IMG/VR virus record: IMGVR_UViG_3300045988_085724
Coordinates: 32,001 to 96,000 of that record
From: a virus
DNA length: 64,000 nucleotides
Direction: 5' to 3' (one strand)
The notes below the pieces were generated by a model. That model saw nothing but the letters and a program-made list of their open reading frames with translations. It did not search any database and was not told the origin of the DNA. Shown here piece by piece: positions 4,851 through 53,989 of the stretch (position 1 is the stretch's first letter; each line of letters starts with the position of its first letter). A program made the position numbers and the translations under genes.

Positions 4851-7800
4851 TTAATTGTATGATTGTCTAAATTTGGTTATTATATGTGATATTGCATGAT
4901 CATTGTCATTACTATTCATCAACAGTTCTTCTATCATCCATTTACCGCGTAATCTACGAATTCCATCTGCACACCTTGGTATCGGGAAGCATATATTTCC
5001 TTCTCTATTTGTATATTTATCGATCATTCCAGCTTCATCTAAATCTGTATAGAGATTGCAGTTGAAATTATCGTAATCAGCAGTTTGTTTAGTATGACTA
5101 GAAGTCGTATTATATAATTGCGGGAAGACTATTTGCTGATTATCAAATACTTTTGTAACTGATGCATTTGGATTTACTACAAAGTTCAATCTGGCTGTAT
5201 CATCAGTTGTTGGAGTTTCGCCATCATTACACCAACGTGTATATGATGCAAAATTAGATCTTATCGAAATTGCATCAGTCTGATTTGTTAAATTATTATA
5301 TACTGTAGCTAATTGTCCATTTAACACATCATACATAGACTACGCTATACCTAATTTGCAGTTAAATGCTAATGTCATTTCCTCACTTAAAATAGCGTTA
5401 TTTTTAATTGGGTGAAACAATAATTCATCGTTAATTGTGTCGTATGTAATTGTAGGTACTTGAGTATCGCCATTAATGTTTATCTACATTAGTGTCTTTA
5501 CATTACAATTTTCCGTAAAGTCTAATACTGACATTTTAGTGCTACCATATGCGCCAGATGTAGCTTTGTATGCTGCAATACATTTATTGCCGTAATCAAA
5601 CCAATATATATCGTTATCGACATTTACTTTACACATATCTTGTGCCCTCATTCCAAACTTGGTACTTAAGTAGTCAGATCTCTGCAATACAGTTCCTTGT
5701 CCCAGTTGTATAAGGTTACTATTTTCATCTTTAACAAGTGAACGCTCATTAACAGATAACTTACCAAATGCTTTAGTTTGCCAGAAATACAATGTATCTT
5801 GTGTAGTAAATAAATCAGTTAATTCTCCGTATATTGGGTTAACGTCTATGTAATCCACAGGTTTAAATATATTCCAACTATTTAAAAGTTCTCCGTTAGT
5901 CTTTAGTTGTGAATAACATATTCTTTGTGTATAAGTATTCTACAGATATGTAGTGCTCTATGGAGAATATAAATCGTTACTGGTTCCGTTGTCAGAATAA
6001 ATAAGGTTATATTGATGTACTGGTCTATCTTGTGAAGTTACACCCTTTATTTCACCAGCTTCAGCTTGTAAGTTAGCGTTATTTGTATTACGATAATTCA
6101 TTCCATAATCGAAATACTGATTGATAGTACTTTCCATCGGAATATAATGTATTGTCTGCATAGACTGCAATGAACTCTTATCGTCATTAAAGTCATACGC
6201 TTTATACATGCCTTCGATCTCATATATCTGTGTATACATATCACCTGTAAATACGCTCATCTTATTGATGTCATTTTCTCCTAAAGAACATGCTTTATAA
6301 TCACCAAATCCATAATACGTATCATATTGCTTAGACGACATATCTTTACCAGAATAGTGTATAGCAGGATGTGTGATCTCACATAGAAGTGTTCCCGGAT
6401 AACTATTTAATTTAGATACTTCTTCCGGATCTTTAGAATTTACTTGAGGGTCGAATGATGGTATTAAAATTCCACCTAAAGCCGATGGACTGTAATAATT
6501 TGTTATAGGATTGGTCGTTATTACTTCTCCAAAAATATATTTTAGACTGTGAGATTTTATTATTCCCCCGTTCTACGAATCTATTAATTTGCCCAATTGT
6601 TCTCTATCATCAGATAACTATATTATCAAACACCTTGCGGCAGGACCGATTGGCCCAATAGAAGGGAAACTCCTGTGTTCATGGTTACCTGAATTCTCAA
6701 CGTTTGTAAATTCAACGACATCCTTCCATGTACCTTCTGTCCATCCGAATTCATTATTTGTCCCTACAGGAATATCATATTTACTACTACAAACCCAATT
6801 CAAATAACTAGACGTAGATATATTTTTAGCATATGATTTATATTTCTTTACAGCGTTACTTATTTTACTTCCATCCATGACATGATTAGAAAAACCATCC
6901 TCCCAATTAAGCATTCTTACGTTTGATATTTCACGTATCTACATAGAATAATTATTTTGGTTCAGATTAAATTTGGTATCTTTTGTAAACTAAACATTAT
7001 CTATGTCTACTTTGTATCCGGAATTTATATTGTTAGGCCTCAATACTGGCTCACCGTTGTCATATACAATTTTATTATCAGAATCTAGCATGAAAAATCG
7101 CCTAGAATATACAGTATTTGCTGAGTATAAGTACGACAATTTATTTACCTTATTGGATTTGTCTGATTTTGAATAACTTAACGCTTTATAATTTACATTT
7201 GTATATTTGCCAAATGTATAGCTGTATTTATCAAACCCGTCACTACTAAAATCTATAACAGGAACAAAACTTAACGAAAATATATGTGTTTTTTGTATCT
7301 AGTATGAGGCGACAGCACACTTAGACGTATAATCATCATATGCATCATCATTTGTAAATCTTACTATATCTGTTTCGGTTGGAGAATACAAATACAAAGC
7401 GGGCGTTAATGATATTTGATTTGTTTTAAGTTTGTTTAACGTGTCATCCACATACGTCTGTATCTCAGGGCAATATACCTAATATAGTCTATTATCAGAC
7501 GCACCACTAGTCATTTGTTCTGGCCATTGTGTTGCATTGCCATTCGGATATGGAGTATATCCTATATACTAAGGATTACTTATAATAAATCCTGTAGGAT
7601 AATATGGAGAGTACGTACCATCAACAAGTTTCTGTCTAACGGTACTTGCTATTACAACCTGTTGCAGTGATCTAGAATATTCATCTGTACGTTGACAACG
7701 TACTATTTCGTATCCGCATATGTGGTTTGTATTAGCAAAATCTTTAAATGCATCATTTAATGTAAATTCTATACCGATTTGTATTGTGCCTAATTCGTTT

Positions 7801-9560
7801 AATTTAATTATGCCCGGATGCGGAATTCGTATATCACCTATCCATATTACGTCACTTCTTGTACCGTCGTTCTTATACAATACTATGCCGTATCGGTATA
7901 CTTCACCACGTTTAAGAGATTTGATACAACTACTTGTAATAGCATCATTATGAGTCACCTTATCTGGACGTGGAAACCCACAATCAGAAATAATATCATA
8001 CGCATTCGGTAGAGGTACATTTTCTTCTTGGTCTTGAGGTATTTTGGGCTTGATATCAAAAACAGGTACAAATCTATCATCGGACAAATCGTACTGTAGA
8101 TAATACGAATTATTTGTATCTATCGCCTCATCGTCATCAATCTAAAGTAACTATAACCTCCATGAGATATAAACACCGCTACCTCCAATATAATTATTAT
8201 AATCAAACATGGCGTTACTGTACTGATTATCAAAATTATGATTTACATCGGCATATGGGTTTGAATAATCAGCATTGTTGAACATCTTATCGCTTATAAA
8301 AGCCTAAACTGCTTTATCACCATTGTCAACCTAGTCAGGAGATTTAGACTCTGGTTTGTTATATGTATTTACATCTAGATACGGAATATTATACTTATTA
8401 CCGCTAACCGGAGTAAACTATATAGCCCAGAACTTTTTAAGATCTTCTCTATCTAATTGAAATATAGTATCATCCTTTACATTTCCAGCGAATAAATAGC
8501 CTTGATTTTGTTCAAGTAATTTAGGTATAATGTCCTGTCCATGTATCTAAGCGAACTCTTCAACGGATATAGTCTGTAAAGTCTTACGCCCGTTATCTAT
8601 AACACTAATGTTTGTGCCTGTAAACTCACCGTCATATATCAGATCAATCTAAGCATTCTAATTAGGTTTTATATATTGTATTCTATATACCTATAGCCTA
8701 TCGAATTGATCTATCTTCTCATCAACTGCTATTCCTAACTATAAACCTATTGACGTAACTGTATCTTCAGCACAGCCAACTTCAGTATCACGAGAAGGAT
8801 TTATGACTTGATATTTACGACTTAATGGTGCTAATTTACTAGTTACTCCATATTTCTTATAGAATCTATAAGTATATTGTACCTATGAAGTTTTAAGTTG
8901 TCCTCCTACGATTGCCTTATATGTAATAGCATGTTTTGGGAAATACCTATTTTGACTAATTAAATCTATATCAATTTCTCCATCTGTTTTATGGGTTGTT
9001 TCATCTATTTTATACAGACTTTTAATATAATCAGTATCCTTTACATTGATCATCATTATCTTATGCTCGCCGTCTGCAATATATAGATTTACTACTTTGT
9101 CAGTTTCATACTGTAATACTGCCGAAACATTTCGCAAGTCAACTGCATCTTCTACTTTTTCTCGAATTTTTATTTTGCACAAGAATGCCCATCTGTATCT
9201 TGGTAATTCATCAGAAGCCTCTACTTTATACAAATATATGTAATTATTATGTAGCTTAATTAAGATATTAGTGTCTCCTGACGTAATTATTTTTATTATC
9301 CGCTGAGTTTTATCGTCGTCGAATTTAGGTACAATCTAAGTCGTATAAGTAATGTCTTCATTTAACGCTTTAACTGGAGTCATTACTCCGTATTTTCCAT
9401 ATGCAGCGATATCATTGTAGCTATTTATTTTTGACGTACCGTACGGCCGCAAATTAACAGCATATATGTACTGGTTATTTTTAATAGTGTCATACGCAGA
9501 ATCAGTATTCATACCACCAGTAAAAGTATTTATAAACGTATTATTCTGTTCAGTAGCCAT
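4851..9560 (-). CDS. giant structural protein (about 1570 codons; tail hub/muzzle-type candidate), TAG-recoded
   Basis: Seven track ORFs (9336..9623, 8883..9233, 7569..8087, 6618..6914, 5958..6341, 5484..5858, 4851..5336) are all in one frame. The junctions I checked are TAG. I read 8088-8460 and 5337-5483 through with TAG as sense and found them open. TAA stop at 4851. ATG at 9560 (MATEQNNTF...). Confidence 0.75.
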
Positions 9561-10458
9561 AGTAATAATCATTATATAAAGACTGTTGTTTACCAATATT
9601 ACTGAAGAATGTTTCATCTCCATCCCAATCTGGTATTAACTTATTCCAGTCTCTCTTTATGTTCTGCATATCATCTGCTGTAGGCATCATAGCTTCTGCA
9701 TATGCTTGATTTCTATAAAAATTCCACTGTTGCTGTAAGTAAGAATAAACAGCACCGTTATTATTCACGCCTTTACCGCCGAGCTTTCCTTTAAGGTATT
9801 TTGAGAAATTTATTTTCATTACTACATACCAATATATTGCCTCTTGATACGATGTCGTATCTGGGATAAGTGGATACCCACGCTCATCTGTAGCGATTGC
9901 TTTATATTGTAATTTAATGTACCCATCTCGCATATTAGTAGCAATCCAACCTGGCTTAATAAAATATTCTGGTTTTTCATTAAGTCTATTGCGCAAATAC
10001 TTCATTCCGTTTACTGTTGCAAACTGTGATTGAGTGGTTGGATATTTATACTTCATCTCCTCGTGTTCGGGCTTAATTTCTTGCCTTTCTGCGGCTAAAT
10101 TATTTGGGTCTGTAGGAAGTACGTATTCTTCTTGAGCCTTAGGTATTTGTTTGCTTTTAAACAACCCTGTAGCAGTACTCATTGGCTGCCATGGTCCATT
10201 TTCATTCTTAGAATATGCCACACCATCTAATACAATTAAATCGGCAGGCATCGGTATTTGATAGTCTTGTATTTTAAATATAGGTACGCCATCTATGCCA
10301 GACTCTCTAACTATATATTGCATAGGTGCGCCTATCTTTTCAGTAGCTTCAAATATCCATTCTCTAATATCCTCAATACGCTATCTTACCTCAGACGAAT
10401 CTAGGTCTGCCATAATCTTAGCTATGACAGCCTCACACTTAGTATACTTGTATATCAT
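9550..10458 (-). CDS. structural protein (unknown), TAG-recoded at the N-terminus
   Basis: Track ORF 9550..10323 ends in TGA. The frame extends upstream through TAG at 10381 and 10465 to the TAA boundary at 10489. ATG candidates are 10458 and 10413. Confidence 0.6.
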
Positions 10459-13160: not shown

Positions 13161-14282
13161 TTAATCCTCCCAACTACCAGGGTCACTAGTAATAGTTATT
13201 GTAATATTGTTCTTTGTAATAGGACTATATATCCAGAACGTGCGATTATCATTAGTATTAACAGTACACCCGTCACCTTGAGCACCAGTAACATCTCCTA
13301 CAGATGCACCTGGGGTTTTAAATGCTTCAAACTAAATTATCTGTTTAGGGTCACCTGACAGACAATTATTGTTTACAAATATTTCGGAAGGGCCTTCAAC
13401 AGTAACAGTACTCTCATGAACGTATTTAACAGTATGCCATTTTCCAGAACTAACTACCTTCATTGTCGCATTTATAGCTACATTGTCCCTCAATAAATAT
13501 GTAATCTCTGTATTCACATCACTATATTTATCAATTCTATTAATTTGCCCGTTTTCACCTACAGCTATAGCAGATGGACCTCCATGCATGGCAACAGTAA
13601 ACAATTCATTGAATTCATCCGGAGTTACTTCTTTAGATGCACCGTTCGAGTAATGAAGCTCTATACTATATACAACATGGTTATAATCCTCATCTCCAAT
13701 ATTAAATACTTGCTATGTTTCAAGTGTTAATGTGTTAGGAATACTTATGCTTGTTATATATGGAGTATCTAAGTCGATTACTGTATCTGTGTCAATATCT
13801 TGGTCATTACTGGTTAATGCAAATACTACGCCTTTATCTATAGTATACGTACGTAAGTTATCTGCGCCCCATCCTGTTTGATACAGTGTAAGTACAATAA
13901 CTACACGATATTCTCCTAATAGCTTCTAGTCTACAGCAGGAAAATAAGCCTCTATCTTATTCTGTTCGGCCAACAGTCTAGACGGTGCTAAATATTCCTT
14001 CTTAATGCTCATAAAAGGCGTAGAATTTACGCCAAAACCATTGTATCCAGGAAACCAGTGAGGAGCGTCTATATTGCATGGGAATACATTGTACATCGGT
14101 TTGCCACAGTTACATATATTATATTGTGCAGGATCATATGTTTGAGGAAACGGATTAACGTTGCTATCAGATTCAGGTATGAAATAACATCTCAACTGTT
14201 TGATCATCGTAGCATCAAAATCCGTTAATTCATGTAATGTAGTCTATACACGAATATCATTGCCTATTCTTATTCTTTTCAT
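13161..14282 (-). CDS. structural protein (unknown), TAG-recoded
   Basis: ATG at 14282-14280 (MKRIRIGNDIRV...). Track ORFs 13926..14207 and 13332..13604 are in the same frame and both end in TAG. I read it through to TAA at 13161-13163. Confidence 0.7.
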
Positions 14283-14300
14283 ATTATTCGTGTTAAAACA

Positions 14301-14337
14301 ATAAAAGCTAGAATGGGTAAATCCCCACCCTAGCTTT
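14301..14337 (-). terminator. rho-independent terminator after 14358..15452
   Basis: Minus strand reads AAGCTAG-loop-CTAGCTT followed by TTTTATT. Confidence 0.6.
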
Positions 14338-14357
14338 AGTGTTTGTTAATATTTAAA

Positions 14358-15452
14358 TTAAGCAGCTTTATATGCAATCTCTTCAAGATTTACTCCAACA
14401 TTTGTAAATTCGTCTTTAAGAGCTTTAATATCTGTTTCTGCAGGAGTTCCTGCAGCAGAAACATAAATCTCAATAGCTTGTTTTGTATGACGCTGAATAT
14501 CATCAGCAGCACGATACTTTGTCTCAAATTCGATAGTAATACCATCGTACTTCTTAGAAAGATCGGTAATCATAGCAGGCTTGATGATAGGATCTGTGCA
14601 GCAGTCACGATTGAGAATTCCCTCATAACCCATAGCTTGTGCCTCACGGTCACGTACATTCTTAGCGCTCATAGGATCGTTATAACCCTCTTTCTTATTG
14701 ATAGTAAGACCTGTGGGGAAATACTTATTCTTAGAAGCAAAACCGGCTGCCTGAGGATTAGTGTAGTATACGTTTGCATTGAAACGGACCTTATTGGCTA
14801 CGTTAAGTGTATCTACGCTATTGTCATCATCATAAGGCATTGCGGTAAGAATAAGTTTGCCTTTAGCATCGTCAGCTTCAGCAGAAACATTAGTGCCGGC
14901 TTTTGCCTCTACACGAGCACGCTTATACTGATCTGTAATTATTGTAGCAAAAGCTTTGGCAACATCATCAGCGGTATCACCTTTCTTCGTAAGATATTCA
15001 TAAGACTCTGTCCACTTACGGAAACGAGTAGGCATATCTTTGAAAGTAAGACGTACTACAATACGACGATTGCCCTGTGCAAACTCATTTTTATCATCAG
15101 TAAAAGCACCGTTGAAATTAATAGTTATAGTATCCTCTTCAGCAAGTTTTGTGTTCTTTTTGTAAGCATCTGCAAGCATAAACGTTGCAGACTTGATATA
15201 ATTCTTATCAATCCAGTTAGACCACTTTACGATATTGGTATAGGTTTCGGTTTTTGCACCATGTACGCGAAGTACACCATCTTTAACAAGACCGATACGG
15301 AATTCATCAGAATTCTTCTCATTCTTTTCAAATACGAACTTACCAACATTTCCAGCAACATTCGTTTCAGTTCCTTTAAGAGTCTTAGTTCCTTCTATTA
15401 CACCTGGATTGTTTGTGTTACTAACAAACACTGTATTTACATATGTAATCAT
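14358..15452 (-). CDS. abundant-looking virion structural protein (unknown), TAG-free
   Basis: Intact 364-aa ORF with a TAA stop. It is flanked by its own hairpin terminators. Confidence 0.75.
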   Translation of the reverse strand: MITYVNTVFVSNTNNPGVIEGTKTLKGTETNVAGNVGKFVFEKNEKNSDEFRIGLVKDGVLRVHGAKTETYTNIVKWSNWIDKNYIKSATFMLADAYKKNTKLAEEDTITINFNGAFTDDKNEFAQGNRRIVVRLTFKDMPTRFRKWTESYEYLTKKGDTADDVAKAFATIITDQYKRARVEAKAGTNVSAEADDAKGKLILTAMPYDDDNSVDTLNVANKVRFNANVYYTNPQAAGFASKNKYFPTGLTINKKEGYNDPMSAKNVRDREAQAMGYEGILNRDCCTDPIIKPAMITDLSKKYDGITIEFETKYRAADDIQRHTKQAIEIYVSAAGTPAETDIKALKDEFTNVGVNLEEIAYKAA

Positions 15453-30160: not shown

Positions 30161-30679
30161 TTATCTAGGATTTTCGTAAAGACCTATTACACCTCCACCT
30201 TTAACTCTACCGGTTTCAGCCTGTTCAGCCTTTGCTTGTTTCATCGCCATATCAAGCGATTTAATTATTCCACTTATATCCTTGAGAAGCTTAGACACTT
30301 TAGTAGCACTATCTATATCTAAATCTGTCTCAGAATAACTATTCATTACACTCATAATCGCCTCTGCTGCATGTTTCGACGAAGTAAGCAAACGAGTCAT
30401 CGGAGTTTCTTGAAACTCGTTAAACCGTTTTGCCAACTCCATCATCTATGCATCAGGTTTAAAATTCTCATCCTTAAAGACATCCTTAGCTACTCTCCAC
30501 GTACGCTCCTTTTCTGGATATGCCTCATATGGAGTATTCCATTTATATCGCCATACTATAAATTCGATTTTCTTCAACGCTTCTTGTTTATCTTTAGCGT
30601 TATTATAGTAATCTTTAAATGGAGGTATAGCTAATTCATCAGTCTTTAGTATTATCTTATTTCCCTATATATCAAACAT
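30161..30679 (-). CDS. small protein (small-terminase position; function unproven), TAG-recoded
   Basis: ATG at 30679-30677. TAGs at 30665 and 30446. Joins track ORF 30161..30445. TAA at 30161. Confidence 0.55.
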
Positions 30680-31107
30680 TATGTTAGTTTAGTTAATGCG
30701 CCATGCATAATAAATGTAACTTGGCTATTATTTGCAGATAACTTACGCACAATCGCTGTAATAATGTACATGTTATTATTTGCAGTATTATAATAATTAG
30801 TAGTATAATATAACGTCATACTGTTGTCTGCACTCGTCTCACGCTATAAATTAAATATAAGCGTTGGGAAATCATTTACTCCGACTGGTCCAAATGCATC
30901 TTGTACACCATTCCAAATAATATATTGAGGTGGGTATCCATTTCCAAGAGCATCTCCTCTCTATGTAAATATTAGTTTTTGCTAGTCTTCTGGTATACTG
31001 TACGAGTACGTATCCGTTGTTTTACTACCTAAAGTAATCGATATAGGATGAGCAAATTTTGTCCAGTCTTTTAGGCGAACAAGTCCAGATCTGTCTAATG
31101 TTTCCAT
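30679..31107 (-). CDS. small structural protein (unknown), TAG-recoded
   Basis: ATG at 31107-31105 to TAA at 30679-30681 (TAATG overlap with the next start), with three in-frame TAGs. Confidence 0.5.
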
Positions 31108-36860: not shown

Positions 36861-37122
36861 TAGCCCATGTAGGTATCGATCCCACTCCTTCGGGGTTCTT
36901 CCAACATCATGTCACCATGACCGTAAAACGTTGTTGGCTGGACTTTGTCTTCACCATGCTTTCGTTTAGGTGTCTCGTATAAAGTCTCTACACTCGGTAT
37001 TTAAACCTAGCTCGGCGTTATCTACTAGAGACGTTCGCCGACTTAGCGAGATGTTCATCTAAATGTTTCCAAATAGAGCTCCACCAAAGAGCCCGACGTG
37101 CTAGCCAGTACACAAATGGGCA
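36861..37122 (-). tRNA. tRNA-Sup(CUA), amber suppressor, split by a group I intron in the anticodon loop (exon 1 37088..37122, exon 2 36861..36897)
   Basis: Exon 1 is TGCCCAT-TT-GTGT-ACTGGCTA-GCAC-G-TCGGG-CTCT. Exon 2 is AAC-CCCGA-AGGA-GTGGG-ATCGATA-CCTAC-ATGGGCT-A. Joining them gives a 72-nt cloverleaf with the 7-nt loop C-U-CUA-A-C. The splice points are fixed by the U.G pair in P1 and by the terminal intron G. Confidence 0.8.
36898..37087 (-). ncRNA. group I intron (IC3-like, tRNA-type), 190 nt
   Basis: P1 pairs exon GGGCUCU with intron GGAGCUC, with U.G at the splice site. Core strings are GUCGGCGAAC...UAACGCCGAGCUAGG and GUGUAGAGACU...CACCUAA...GAAAGCAUGG. These closely resemble the Azoarcus tRNA-Ile intron as I recall it. 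The 3' extension has a UCAUG-GUGA-CAUGA (GNRA) hairpin and a CCAACA/UGUUGG helix, and ends in G. Confidence 0.8.
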
Positions 37123-37338
37123 ATAATGTTGACATTTGTATCCCTCTGCCAACGAAGGGTGTAATTTATGCATCATTACAAAGCCGGACCTCATTCGTGT
37201 CGTTGTCTTCGCAGGACAATTAACCGATCCTGTGCAATCGGTTTGATTATTTCGTAATCAACGCATATTTTATAAACTATCGTTTACTAAATATGAAAGT
37301 AATATAACCTCCTTTCTTAAGGGAGATTAATATTTGGG

Positions 37339-37728: not shown

Positions 37729-37812
37729 GCGCAGAGCCCAGGATTTGAACCTTGATTCTTCTGATAATCACCAAAGGTTAATCAGATGTTTTACCTTATA
37801 AACTACTCCGCG
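37729..37812 (-). ncRNA. tRNA-like element: 8-bp acceptor, D-arm and T-arm, with a long irregular hairpin in place of the anticodon arm
   Basis: Minus-strand read is CGCGGAGT-A-GTTT-ATAAGGTA-AAAC-A-TCTGAT[TAACCTTTGGTGATT]ATCAGA-AGAAT-CAAGG-TTCAAAT-CCTGG-GCTCTGCG. There is no 7-nt anticodon loop. Confidence 0.45.
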
Positions 37813-37839
37813 AGGAATTTCTTAACTGTGTTCATGTCG

Positions 37840-37914
37840 TGGGCGCTGATGGATTCGAACCACCGACCACCTACTTGTAAGGCAGGTGCTCTAAACCAGC
37901 TGAGCTAAGCGCCC
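37840..37914 (-). tRNA. tRNA-Val(UAC)
   Basis: Minus-strand read is GGGCGCT-TA-GCTC-AGCTGGTTT-AGAGC-A-CCTGC-CTTACAA-GTAGG-TGGTC-GGTGG-TTCGAAT-CCATC-AGCGCCC-A. This is a canonical cloverleaf. Confidence 0.85.
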
Positions 37915-53105: not shown

Positions 53106-53575
53106 AAGCTCGATTCATAAATTGAATTCAGATCATAGAACCTTTGAGTCACATGATTACGTGGAGGGGGAAGTTAACGCTTGGGATCTGGCATTATGCT
53201 TCAGTTGCGGAACACCACGAGACATGAATTGACATGTCATACAGAGCCTAGAGCCAGTTATGAATTCAGATGCCGAACTTACGGTAGTTTAAATATAAGT
53301 CACATGATCAAAAGAATTGAATCTTAGCGAGTCATTGGAGCCTCGACAAGGTTAGCATTGGTTAACTACGTCGACTGAGATGTAAATCAAAAATGTTGAA
53401 AGCGACATGCAAGAGTCTTAGAACCAGTCATATCACCGCTTGTATTAAGCCAAATAAAGCCGTTTTAAAGCGTTATTAATCGATTGTGAAGTAGCTAATC
53501 ACATGAGACCAAATAACGTCTTAAAACGGCTTAAAACAGGCTTAAATCAAATGTTCTATCTGATCAATAGAACAT

Positions 53576-53641
53576 TTACAAAGAATAATAGCATGTATGA
53601 GGTAATTTACGAAGACGAGGGTTCGAATCCCTCATGGTCCA
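53576..53641 (+). ncRNA. tRNA-like 3' module (T-arm plus acceptor 3' strand); candidate acceptor piece of a permuted tmRNA-like RNA
   Basis: Reads ...AATTTACGAAGAC-GAGGG-TTCGAAT-CCCTC-ATGGTCC-A. It is immediately followed by the GTCT-ACAT-AGAC hairpin and a T-run. Confidence 0.35.
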
Positions 53642-53642
53642 C

Positions 53643-53661
53643 GTCTACATAGACATTTTTT
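53643..53661 (+). terminator. small hairpin plus T-run
   Basis: GTCT-ACAT-AGAC followed by ATTTTTT. Confidence 0.4.
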
Positions 53662-53719
53662 CATAATAAGGAAAACTATCGCCAATGTGGTTCGTGAGAA
53701 TAGCATTGGTTTTTAACAA

Positions 53720-53857
53720 GGGCCATACTGGATTTGATTCGTAAAGGAAGTAAATACGTTAAGTGCTACTATATAAATTCAACTGGCAACTATAATGTTG
53801 TAGATTACACACATGTAGCATGAGTGTAATCTGAGTGTTTCCTACTAAAGTGGAGGA
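53720..53857 (+). ncRNA. candidate coding piece of the tmRNA-like RNA (5' GGGCCAT-ACTGGATTTGATTCG...)
   Basis: GGGCCAT pairs with ATGGTCC (53634-53640), giving G3.U70 and A73. The 5' string resembles tmRNA GGGGCUGAUUCUGGAUUCGAC. A possible tag frame is GGC AAC TAT AAT GTT GTA GAT TAC ACA CAT GTA GCA TGA at 53785..53823. Confidence 0.3.
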
Positions 53858-53905
53858 AGATGTAATACGATAGGCGTACATTGTGGTTCGAGTCCACTAC
53901 ATCTA
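53858..53905 (+). ncRNA. mini tRNA-like element (acceptor stem, short hairpin, T-arm; no anticodon arm)
   Basis: Reads AGATGTA-A-TACG-ATAGG-CGTA-CATT-GTGG-TTCGAGT-CCAC-TACATCT-A. Confidence 0.4.
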
Positions 53906-53989
53906 CGAAATTTATTTGTCTATTGTTTATGAAAAGTTATTAGAGTAGTAGTGCACGGTTCGTGAGAATAGTGCATTTTTAATTTGATT

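Follow-up and report, generated by a model that had tools for sequence, protein, structure and literature searches.

The suppressor tRNAs described from recoded phages (Ivanova 2014, Yutin 2021, Borges 2021/2022) are tRNA(CUA) species that read TAG as glutamine, and they are encoded near late or lysis genes by intact genes found by tRNAscan-SE. According to the papers on stop-codon-recoded phages, most recoded genomes (60% or more) have no detectable suppressor, for which "non-canonical" tRNAs or host factors have been proposed, and the phages' hosts reportedly keep to the standard code. Introns have been seen in phage tRNAs as well: the TAG-recoded Lak megaphages of the gut carry "enigmatic" introns of ~90 nt in Tyr, Phe, Gly and Thr tRNAs, which were not classified by Rfam (Devoto et al. 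2019). As for group I introns of phages, a 2014 review stated that they occur only in protein-coding genes. Elsewhere, Azoarcus sp. BH72 has a compact, ORF-less tRNA-Ile(CAU) intron of subgroup IC3 (205 nt), inserted after position 36 of the CAU anticodon, and its published structure includes P9 and P9.0. The tRNA-Leu(UAA) introns of phages and gut bacteria lie in the anticodon loop between positions 34 and 35, where the 5′ exon ends in U and the 3′ exon starts with AA.

Here we describe a locus that resembles each of these systems in part. It lies in a 64,000-nucleotide stretch of viral DNA (the window), which covers 64 kb of a ~97-kb genome and belongs to a TAG-recoded crAss-like gut phage that most likely reads TAG as glutamine. 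The locus is very probably an amber-suppressor tRNA(CUA) gene, most likely of glutamine identity, which is split by a compact, ORF-less group I ribozyme that would be spliced out. Like the published phage suppressors it would be a tRNA(CUA) serving nearby late genes; unlike them, it is split by a ribozyme and is missed by tools of the tRNAscan-SE kind. Like the described Lak introns, its intron resides in a tRNA of a TAG-recoded gut phage, but it has the parts of a full group I ribozyme. In our literature search, which was not exhaustive, no phage suppressor tRNA was described as carrying a group I intron.

The split tRNA(CUA) gene and the TAG-recoded late block

The whole gene runs from 37122 to 36861 on the minus strand, to which all features below belong, and its anticodon loop holds the 190-nt intron (36898–37087). 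Read directly from the sequence, the 5′ exon (37088–37122) comprises U1 to U35, that is, the acceptor 5′ strand, the D arm, the anticodon stem 5′ strand, and C32, U33, C34 and U35 of the loop. The 3′ exon (36861–36897) supplies A36, A37 and C38, the anticodon stem 3′ strand, a 4-nt variable loop, the T arm, and the acceptor 3′ strand up to discriminator A73, with CCA not encoded. When the two exons were joined, aragorn returned a 73-nt cloverleaf with anticodon CUA in a 7-nt loop (CUCUAAC), the insertion site being between anticodon positions 35 and 36. A preliminary description of this DNA had located the intron in the anticodon loop of a suppressor, and the joined exons bear this out. Only manual joining made the gene visible: aragorn did not detect it on the 64-kb window, nor in its intron mode on the precursor. 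No other tRNA(CUA) was detectable within the window.

Around the junction, the predicted ligated exons read ...GUCGGGCUCU|AACCCCGAAGG, with ...GGGCUCU|AACCCCG... at the core. The intronless allele L413, on another phage contig, reads ...GGCUCUAACCCAGG..., identical to this product, and the predicted splice junction thus matches exactly what the intronless allele shows. The acceptor stems of the window, L099, cr115_1 and L413 carry compensated changes, across which the U1·U72 mismatch is retained; the unpaired U1·U72 and A73 are both conserved and lend indirect support to charging with glutamine.

The gene is located at the head of a TAG-rich, leftward late block (1–35601), recognised by its in-frame TAG codons, by its substitution pattern against cr131_1, and by homology to that genome, which names terminase, portal, head, holin and tail genes. 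As had been proposed, the suppressor adjoins a late module, which holds more than 150 in-frame TAG codons, 23 of them in the ORF at 4851–9623 alone. TAG exchanges with CAG or CAA at 19/24 and 13/24 of the sites substituted relative to cr131_1. CUA suppressors are readily charged by GlnRS, and the proposed glutamine identity is based on these codon substitution patterns together with such general knowledge of the enzyme. A pyrrolysine tRNA was rejected, the name being simply aragorn's label for CUA; the substitution data indicate Gln.

Fold of the intron and its relation to known tRNA introns

All the strings quoted in the preliminary description were recovered on the minus strand, at the positions it had assigned. 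At its 5′ boundary the intron starts after U35, whose U·G wobble closes a 7-bp P1 (37076–37094) made of GGGCUCU of the 5′ exon (37094–37088) and the guide GGAGCUC (37082–37076) around a UUGGU loop. At the 3′ boundary lies the terminal G (omega-G) at 36898, and P1 with its U35·G wobble together with omega-G are the splice-site features of a group I intron. In L099, GGG → AAG and CUC → CUU of P1 have changed in step. P2 (37060–37075) is a hairpin with a GAAA loop, L2 (37069–37066), and two U·U mismatches in a stem that is compensated in relatives. P3 pairs UCUCG (37047–37051) with CGAGA (36977–36973), the latter closing the P3/P7 pseudoknot. In the P4-P5 domain (37012–37041), P4 is UCGGCG/CGCCGA (37041–37036 with 37017–37012), while P5 is a short 13-nt hairpin (GUCU-CUAGU-AGAU, 37032–37020) connected by J4/5 AAC and J5/4 AA. 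The P6 hairpin, CU-A-GG ... CC-G-AG, spans 36993–37010.

P7, whose 5′ strand G-(A bulge)-GACU (36983–36988) pairs with 36944–36940, would contain the guanosine-binding G-C pair, and its GAGACU...AGUCC is also found in Azoarcus-type introns. P8 (36952–36972) is CACC...GGUG with an 11-nt-type GAAA-tetraloop receptor (CCUAAA...CAUGG), identified by covariation and by comparison with Azoarcus; J8/7 (AAGACAA) and the P7 3′ strand (AGUCC), at 36940–36951, align with AAGGCAU-AGUCC of Azoarcus-type introns. The branched P9 (36901–36937) consists of an outer helix CCAACA/UGUUGG, a small hairpin P9a (36931–36920) and P9b, CAUG-GUGA-CAUG with a GNRA loop (36919–36908). The outer helix and the P9b hairpin had both been noted before and are both present in the sequence, and compensatory changes occur in all three helices. 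Two tRNA-Leu introns of phages, L124 and L164, have the same branched architecture, as does a Ruminococcaceae intron (L240). P10 is weak, at about 3 bp and offset by one; this and the P2 mismatches could make splicing inefficient or factor-dependent.

Covariation lends strong support to the fold from P1 to P9 and to the P3/P7 pseudoknot within it. Among 99 sequences, 92.4% of cells pair, against 29–40% in slid controls, and in 48 of the 56 pairs both sides have changed; an alignment made without fitting to the model gives 93.7% against 34–40%, and there both sides have changed in 19 pairs. Across the 99 sequences P4 is paired in 99% of cells. So is P7, which was left out of the model and shows no sequence variation. 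P3 has 4–5 compensated pairs (4 of 5 in the unfitted alignment), and P4, P6 and P8 are likewise compensated. The core pairings P3–P8, on which the preliminary description had staked its assignment, could thus be built by covariance and are supported. Single-sequence folding was uninformative (z-score −0.88); of the helices, the structure of lowest energy contains just P4, P5, P8 and part of P9.

A local Rfam search of 601 nt matched RF00028 (Intron_gpI) over the full-length model (1–253) with E = 7.7e-5 and 26.9 bits; at the gathering threshold (50 bits) the Rfam search reported nothing. The match is significant though sub-threshold; its low score reflects how broad the Rfam model is and does not count against the fold. 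R1, our own covariance model of this intron type, has a single match in the 64-kb window, at 250 bits, and recovered 276 related introns from other loci.

By inspection, the architecture is compact: P2 is present, J2/3 runs straight into P3, P3′ abuts P8 as in Azoarcus-type introns, and the extensions P2.1, P5abc, P7.1/7.2 and P9.1/9.2 are absent. The two partners of the L2-P8 docking of IC3 introns, the L2 GAAA loop and the 11-nt P8 receptor, are present in the window; among introns with a GAAA L2, the 11-nt-type receptor accompanies it in 149/192, versus 3/26 for other GNRA loops. For L9-P5 docking, with a GUGA loop in P9b and CU:AG in P5, neither a receptor motif nor clear co-variation was found. 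On this architecture we place the intron, provisionally, with tRNA introns of the IC3 kind.

The close likeness to the Azoarcus intron that had been claimed holds for the core. Azoarcus-type introns and the window share P4 UCGGCG/CGCCGA, GUGUAGAGACU, P8 CACC...GGUG with its 11-nt receptor, J8/7 and P7′ (GGUGAAG.CA.AGUCCAG), the L2 GAAA loop and the lack of J3/8, and R1 aligns full-length to bacterial tRNA-Ile(CAU), tRNA-Arg(CCU) and tRNA-Leu(UAA) introns with E values of 1e-5 to 1e-29. The likeness does not extend to nearest kinship: R1 scores are highest for phage tRNA-Leu(UAA) introns (80–123 bits) and only 25–40 bits for the Azoarcus type, by which Azoarcus was rejected as the nearest relative. 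With the tRNA-Leu(UAA) introns the window has in common the anticodon-loop location, the U and AA at the exon ends, the core, the branched P9 and the string GGUCAUGG(Y)GACAUGA. It differs from them in its host, an apparent amber suppressor, in insertion at 35/36 instead of 34/35, in the minimal P5 hairpin, and in a length of 190 nt, among the shortest of the set. The Azoarcus intron, though compact and ORF-less like that of the window, is inserted one position further on and has a receptor-bearing P5/P5a and a larger P6a.

The preliminary description had further taken AUGG as the end of the Azoarcus intron and the 56 nt that follow it in the window as an added 3′ domain. The count, after ...GCAUGG, is right, but the interpretation did not stand. 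In natural beta-proteobacterial tRNA-Ile(CAU) introns, from which the region was read, ...CUAUGG is followed by UGAAGGCAUAGUCCAGGGAGUGGCGAAAGUCACACAAACCGG, 42 nt that comprise J8/7, P7′, P9.0 and P9, and AUGG is the 3′ half of the tetraloop receptor in P8. Since Azoarcus-type introns also run 42 nt past ...UAUGG, the supposed extra domain was rejected in favour of an ordinary J8/7-P7′-P9 region, the 3′ third of the ribozyme. The sole real difference here is the branched P9 of the window, with its extra small hairpin, where Azoarcus has a single GAAA hairpin.

In the proposed pathway, a precursor RNA would be made at the head of the late block, which runs leftward. The intron would fold into P1–P9; L2 GAAA would dock in the P8 receptor, and P5 may be the docking site of the P9b GNRA loop. 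External guanosine would attack after U35, at the P1 U·G wobble, and the freed 5′ exon would then attack after omega-G at 36898. Exon ligation would give the loop C-U-C-U-A-A-C with anticodon CUA; following end processing and CCA addition the tRNA would be charged, presumably by the host glutamine system, and would read UAG in late genes. What the data show are the structure of the gene, the fold backed by covariation, the splice junction, the recoding and the homologues; that the intron is catalytic in vivo, which amino acid the tRNA carries and that no regulation is involved, we infer. Late translation would on this account depend on splicing of the intron.

Alleles of the locus and alternative readings

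Within one tRNA lineage, the window and L099 have an intron of type A, cr115_1 has one of type B, and L413 has none. Such polymorphism, with one fixed site occupied in some close alleles and empty in others, is a mark of mobile introns; a homing endonuclease would be another, and no credible ORF for one was found inside the 190-nt intron. In cr131_1, the closest genome (91% identity), the same locus holds an intronless tRNA(CUA) with a GIY-YIG gene immediately 3′ of it, and the two genomes differ there by a clean cassette swap confined to the tRNA and the endonuclease gene. The RefSeq phage cr115_1, a complete genome, is heavily TAG-recoded (one late gene has 80 TAG codons) and has no annotated suppressor; its only detectable tRNA(CUA) is an unannotated, intron-split gene just upstream of the terminase gene.

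Exons flanking the R1 matches were joined under a strict filter, which demanded a U ahead of the 5′ site and a G ahead of the 3′ site, an anticodon stem of 5 bp without mismatch, U33 and a purine at position 37; this filter leaves 137/277 matches without a resolved tRNA; an earlier permissive scan had been dropped for its many spurious tRNA calls. Leu(UAA) is the carrier in 63 of the 140 resolved cases, and the same intron lineage is also found in Lys, Arg, Gln and Ile tRNAs. Intron-split tRNA(CUA) was resolved at 14 loci, to which L132, L398 and Lak-B1 can be added, most of them in TAG-recoded DNA, and a split opal suppressor tRNA was found in a TGA-recoded contig. Other scans were less selective: a broad P7-P8-P7′ pattern matched at least 120 viral contigs of all kinds and was replaced by a tighter one, while a 15-mer scan for the P1 junction gave mostly chance matches, with only 5 real. 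A tRNA(CUA) precursor with a long variable arm had no BLAST match among the GenBank phages. The recurrence of predicted intron-split amber and opal suppressor tRNAs in recoded phages is a new result. The alternation of intron and no intron, and the presence in ordinary tRNAs, are what a mobile element gives, and the intron is best seen as a resident or formerly mobile element of a lineage colonising phage tRNA anticodon loops, tolerated in these tRNAs because it presumably splices.

This view bears on the idea, put forward in the preliminary description, that splicing acts as a checkpoint, in which a slow or conditional step (guanosine/GTP, Mg2+, folding or a cofactor) switches on UAG decoding, late proteins and lysis. 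The late genes need the suppressor, which in cr115_1 is the split gene and no other, and in both the window and cr115_1 the gene is directly upstream of the late block, as fits the "code-change module" of Borges et al. The two U·U mismatches of P2 and the weak P10 could make folding limiting, and the split suppressors recur in both amber and opal codes. However, no feature specific to regulation was found, the supposed added 3′ domain being standard, and the intron lineage resides mostly in ordinary tRNAs. The timing idea is weakened because the same tRNA body carries the type A intron, the type B intron or none, and because the tRNA(CUA) that the nearest genome has at this site is intronless. 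In vitro, small IC3 tRNA introns splice themselves within minutes, which also counts against a checkpoint. We therefore regard regulated splicing as unlikely, and it is just as doubtful that a rate-limiting, condition-sensitive ribozyme gates the virus-imposed code change and that split suppressors are retained for it; a weaker version of this gating reading would have the split conceal the suppressor, as gene or as precursor, from nucleases of the host or of competitors.

It is also improbable, though not at odds with the main explanation, that the intron protects the gene, the interrupted anticodon-loop DNA being lost as a target for a competitor's homing endonuclease and the intron with its flanks spreading, as a resistant allele, by recombination in co-infections. 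The free-standing GIY-YIG gene adjoining the tRNA(CUA) of cr131_1, the clean swap of tRNA and endonuclease gene, and the two intron types at one site would fit this, and the literature describes an endonuclease whose target lies in the anticodon region of a tRNA gene (Bonocora and Shub 2001). The support is circumstantial, however, and the endonuclease is beside the intronless allele, not beside the intron, with no endonuclease gene within or adjoining the intron of the window. That the intron is instead a dead relic in a tRNA pseudogene, with UAG read by a host suppressor or by one encoded outside the window, is very hard to credit. The score below the Rfam threshold, the P2 mismatches, the relatives L102 and L155 without a G at the expected 3′ splice site, and the share of the ~97-kb genome that lies beyond the window would be in its favour; on the other side, every pairing is intact, as are the U·G wobble, omega-G, J8/7 and the bulged-A P7, all preserved among relatives by compensatory change, the tRNA exons too evolve with compensated stems, the complete genome cr115_1 has no other suppressor, and the hosts are reported to use the standard code. 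Several points also speak against the preferred reading of a spliced, functional suppressor: the sub-threshold Rfam score, the P2 mismatches with the weak P10, a second, intact suppressor that may lie in the part of the genome beyond the window, and the Lak-B phages, in which split tRNA(CUA) genes seem to occur alongside intronless ones.

Missing suppressors of recoded phages

For at least part of the recoded phages, the missing suppressor may in fact be there, its gene interrupted by a group I intron of 190–250 nt; owing to this split, tRNAscan-SE, aragorn and the Rfam thresholds miss it. The genome of cr115_1 is a clean case of an overlooked split suppressor, and the same applies to the opal suppressor of the TGA-recoded contig. 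The Lak megaphages have a split tRNA(CUA) too: their Lak-B genomes hold, in addition to the introns already described, an unreported group I-split tRNA(CUA). With group I introns in the tRNA anticodon loops of well over a hundred viral contigs, the statement of the 2014 review is overturned, and annotation pipelines for recoded phages should look for split tRNAs. In these phages the expression of late genes would depend on the activity of a ribozyme, which makes the timing hypothesis directly testable.

A tRNA(CUA) gene split by a group I intron

From a direct reading of positions 37160 to 36840, it is clear that the minus strand carries an amber-suppressor tRNA gene, tRNA(CUA), in two parts: a 5′ half UGCCCAUUUGUGUACUGGCUAGCACGUCGGGCUCU (37122-37088), an intervening sequence of 190 nt (37087-36898) and a 3′ half AACCCCGAAGGAGUGGGAUCGAUACCUACAUGGGCUA (36897-36861). 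The strings quoted in the preliminary description are all found in this strand. Once the exons have been joined, aragorn recognises a regular 73-nt cloverleaf (loop CUCUAAC, anticodon CUA), but the split gene itself was detected in the window neither by aragorn, nor by its intron mode, nor by the Rfam tRNA model. A scan for an intronless copy of this tRNA identified one of the same lineage, UGCCCUUUUGCGUACUGGCUAGCGCGCCUGGCUCUAACCCAGGAGGAGUGGGAUCGAUACCUACAAGGGCUA, on a 97.7-kb viral contig (locus L413, 7050-7122 of IMGVR_UViG_3300045988_054199). Its loop CUCUAAC is continuous exactly at the predicted ligation point of the window exons, and the intron is therefore sited between anticodon positions 35 and 36; at the sequence level, L413 can serve as an empty-site control for the splice junction. 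Two tRNA(CUA)-like genes with an intron of a different kind, type B (L102, 777-997; L155, 8926-9147), have an A, not a G, right before the 3′-exon AAC (...GUAGUACA followed by AACCCCUC), and represent either an unusual 3′ splice site or a defective copy.

The Rfam Intron_gpI model matches 36920-37099 (-) over its whole length with 26.9 bits (E=7.7e-5, in a 601-nt search); since the gathering score is 50 bits, the intron goes unreported at the Rfam threshold. The secondary structure derived from the sequence comprises P1 (GGGCUCU/GGAGCUC, with U35.G at the splice site), a P2 hairpin with a GAAA loop, P3 (UCUCG/CGAGA), P4 (UCGGCG/CGCCGA), short P5 and P6 hairpins, P7 (G-A(bulge)-GACU/AGUCC), P8 (CACC...GGUG), P9 (CCAACA/UGUUGG around two hairpins) and a terminal guanosine (omega-G) at 36898 (-). 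A covariance model built from four close homologues from viral contigs, the window-type model, gave a single match in the window (250 bits), with no second intron of this kind there by this model, and 276 related introns among the loci fetched. In 99 distinct sequences, standard pairs occupy 92.4% of the cells, against 29–40% when the partners are slid by 1–3 columns, and 48 of the 56 pairs have changed on both sides. P7 was left out of the model, and the alignment was therefore not fitted to it; it is invariant and paired in 99% of the cells of these 99 sequences. A MAFFT alignment made without the model, of six window-type introns and two phage tRNA-Leu introns, gave 93.7% paired cells versus 34–40%, with 19 pairs changed on both sides; in P3 it shows compensation at four of the five pairs (UCUCG/CGAGA, CCCCG/CGGGG, UCCCG/CGGGA, GUGGG/CCCAC and GGUGG/CCACC). 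The 11-nt-type receptor in P8 is present in 149 of the 192 introns with a GAAA P2 loop and in 3 of the 26 with other GNRA loops, so that a tertiary contact, between the P2 loop and the P8 receptor, likewise co-varies. Single-sequence thermodynamic folding was uninformative (z = -0.88). Covariance analysis, the check named in the preliminary description, can construct the core pairings. As a ribozyme, the intron belongs to a known class and is ordinary within it.

The 3′ region and the nearest relatives

The preliminary description correctly counted 56 nt after ...GCAUGG, and took them for an added 3′ domain on the understanding that the Azoarcus intron ends at AUGG. That is not the case. In a set of 73 bacterial loci, fetched by means of a core pattern that resembles Azoarcus, the introns of beta-proteobacterial tRNA-Ile(CAU) genes read ...CACCUAAGGC....GCUAUGG, then UGAAGGCAUAGUCCAGGGAGUGGCGAAAGUCACACAAACCGG, then the 3′ exon AAUCCG..., so that 42 nt more, comprising J8/7, the P7 3′ strand, P9.0 and P9, follow AUGG; P9 and P9.0 are also among the elements named for the 205-nt Azoarcus intron in a recent structural study. 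The motif CCUAAG...UAUGG is the 11-nt GAAA-tetraloop receptor within P8. Past GGUG, the window shows the Azoarcus elements in the same order (GGUG-AAGACAA-AGUCC, versus GGUG-AAGGCAU-AGUCC in Azoarcus), and the added domain is rejected. The sole real 3′ difference from Azoarcus is a branched P9, in which the outer helix encloses two hairpins, the small P9a and the GNRA-capped P9b; this branching accounts for the 56 nt in the window versus 42 nt in Azoarcus. A branched P9, partly of the same sequence, is also present in the phage tRNA-Leu(UAA) introns L124 and L164 and in a tRNA-Leu(UAA) intron of a gut Ruminococcaceae (L240). It is, as judged from these sequences, no suppressor-specific trait.

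With the window-type model, introns of the window type (L099, L129, L132 and L211) score 209–250 bits, phage tRNA-Leu(UAA) introns up to 123 bits, alpha-proteobacterial introns about 50–75 bits and Azoarcus-type tRNA-Ile introns only 25–40 bits; L398 was placed in the window type by sequence inspection, without a model score. Thus, the intron is of the IC3 tRNA-intron type and belongs to the lineage found in tRNA-Leu(UAA), and it is not Azoarcus-like in particular; the similarity in P4, P7, P8 and J8/7 noted in the preliminary description is genuine all the same. The tRNA(CUA) introns form at least four clusters, each nearest to tRNA-Leu introns at 75–85% identity. The IC3 assignment rests on predicted architecture and on homology to introns of tRNA-Ile CAU, tRNA-Arg CCU and tRNA-Leu UAA genes, the hosts of accepted IC3 members.

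Amber recoding and split suppressors in other phages

The preliminary description rightly placed the intron in a suppressor tRNA beside a late module, since a TAG-recoded late block adjoins it. This block has the split gene at its head, with two tRNA-Val genes upstream of that gene. On the minus strand, the ORFs between 1 and 35.6 kb reach their length only with TAG readthrough (23 in-frame TAG in 4851-9623 alone), and by homology they include terminase, portal, major head, holin and tail genes; on the plus strand, the block from 39.8 kb on is almost free of in-frame TAG. The window is 91% identical to the crAss-like phage cr131_1 (Suoliviridae, Cacepaovirus). Where TAG sites differ between the two genomes, the other genome has CAG or CAA at 19 of 24 and 13 of 24 sites, and therefore TAG most likely stands for glutamine in the window. 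The unpaired U1.U72 is common to the tRNA(CUA) of the window, L099 (same intron kind, type A), phage cr115_1 (type B) and L413, with other acceptor-stem positions changing by compensation; its retention fits glutamine identity, going by general knowledge of GlnRS. No second tRNA(CUA) was detectable in the 64-kb window by aragorn, Rfam or the window-type model.

At the same locus, cr131_1 (L002 2129-3006; NC_055902.1 9258-10135) has an intronless tRNA(CUA), annotated as tRNA-Gln, with a gene for a free-standing GIY-YIG homing endonuclease (Pfam E=1e-11) directly after it. The endonuclease gene is missing from the window as a clean indel, and the window tRNA is diverged and intron-bearing. The cr131_1 major head protein (L227 19380-21759; NC_055902.1 27379-29758) is annotated as two CDS with an HNH endonuclease ORF between them, an arrangement suggestive of an intron or intein in the capsid gene of this relative.

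One tRNA-Val call in the window (AAC, 37729-37811 (-)) has an odd length of 83 nt and a weak Rfam score of 36.5 bits, and adjoins a normal tRNA-Val(UAC) at 37839-37914. Two RAGATH-1 hammerhead ribozymes (RF03152; 46475-46581 (+) and 48880-48949 (+), 67.7 and 66.9 bits, gathering 56.3) each precede a tRNA gene by about 110–140 nt (Met at 46721, Gln-UUG at 49060), a pairing in the early region that may reflect tRNA processing or a small mobile unit. A permuted tmRNA-like gene (53552-53914 (+), tag GNYNVVDYTHVA by aragorn) scores 40.5 bits with Rfam tmRNA_permuted, under the gathering score of 47 (E=1.2e-6), and has an annotated counterpart in cr115_1.

By strict-filter exon joining, 140 of 277 introns were resolved as tRNA anticodon-loop introns: 63 follow U34 of tRNA-Leu(UAA); 19 in CAU tRNAs and 12 in tRNA-Arg(CCU) follow position 36; 14 separate positions 35 and 36 of tRNA(CUA); one is in a tRNA(UCA), and there are single cases in tRNAs for Lys, Arg(UCU), Gln(UUG) and Ile(UAU). 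Related group I introns split phage tRNA-Gln(UUG), -Lys(CUU), -Arg(UCU) and -Ile(UAU) genes on the viral contigs L051, L067, L164, L037, L052, L107 and L203; in L164, 500 nt separate two intron-bearing tRNAs. Beyond the 14, further tRNA(CUA) cases are L132, L398 and Prevotella phage Lak-B1. In the last (L412 301-610; MK250020.1 412036-412345), a type B group I intron separates the exons ...GUAGACUCU and AAAUCUAU..., and tRNA(CUA) genes split by type B are also present in Lak-B3, B6 and B9. The majority of the tRNA(CUA)-intron loci are clearly TAG-recoded, with long-ORF coverage rising on TAG readthrough from 0.16 to 0.69, 0 to 0.68 or 0.16 to 0.95. The tRNA(UCA) locus L059 is TGA-recoded (0.47 to 0.91 with TGA readthrough); its 89-nt tRNA (14244-14470 of IMGVR_UViG_3300035698_011250), of the opal suppressor type with a long variable arm and encoded CCA, carries a related group I intron after U34. 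In cr115_1, whose RefSeq genome is complete, late genes have up to 80 TAG codons, and the record and aragorn give only two tRNA-Leu, one tRNA-Arg and a tmRNA; the only tRNA(CUA) in that genome is a split gene that lacks annotation (30,521-30,833) and lies just upstream of the gene for the terminase.

Predicted splicing, probable mobility and the missing suppressors

The most economical reading is that a precursor transcript is produced, from which the ribozyme would excise itself by the standard two-step guanosine-initiated pathway, yielding the CUA anticodon and a tRNA that would decode UAG as Gln in late genes. Where the split gene is the only suppressor, late translation necessarily comes after splicing, and to this extent the dependence proposed in the preliminary description holds. 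Its further idea, that splicing serves a dedicated timing role as a checkpoint for late translation, gains no support from these results and is unlikely, since the intron has no extra domain and the same intron lineage occurs mostly in ordinary tRNAs. Moreover, the closest genome, cr131_1, has an endonuclease gene and an uninterrupted tRNA(CUA) at this site, and one tRNA lineage bears type A (window, L099), the unrelated-looking type B (cr115_1) or no intron (L413). An intron that is gained, lost and replaced in this way has the marks of a mobile element.

According to a 2014 review, every phage group I intron then known was in a protein-coding gene, although tRNA genes are numerous in phages. 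The 2019 paper on Lak megaphages described “enigmatic”, unclassified introns of ~90 nt in tRNAs for Tyr, Phe, Gly and Thr, with intronless Sup-CTA tRNAs, and reported no group I introns. In a full-text literature search, of incomplete coverage, no description of a phage suppressor tRNA with a group I intron came up. As far as can be told, what is new is the kind of host gene, where the intron is inserted, and the consequence that a suppressor is hidden in recoded phages. Between 2021 and 2026, papers on recoded phages repeatedly remarked that in many recoded genomes no suppressor tRNA can be found, and the main value of the finding is that it offers an explanation for at least some of these missing suppressor tRNAs.
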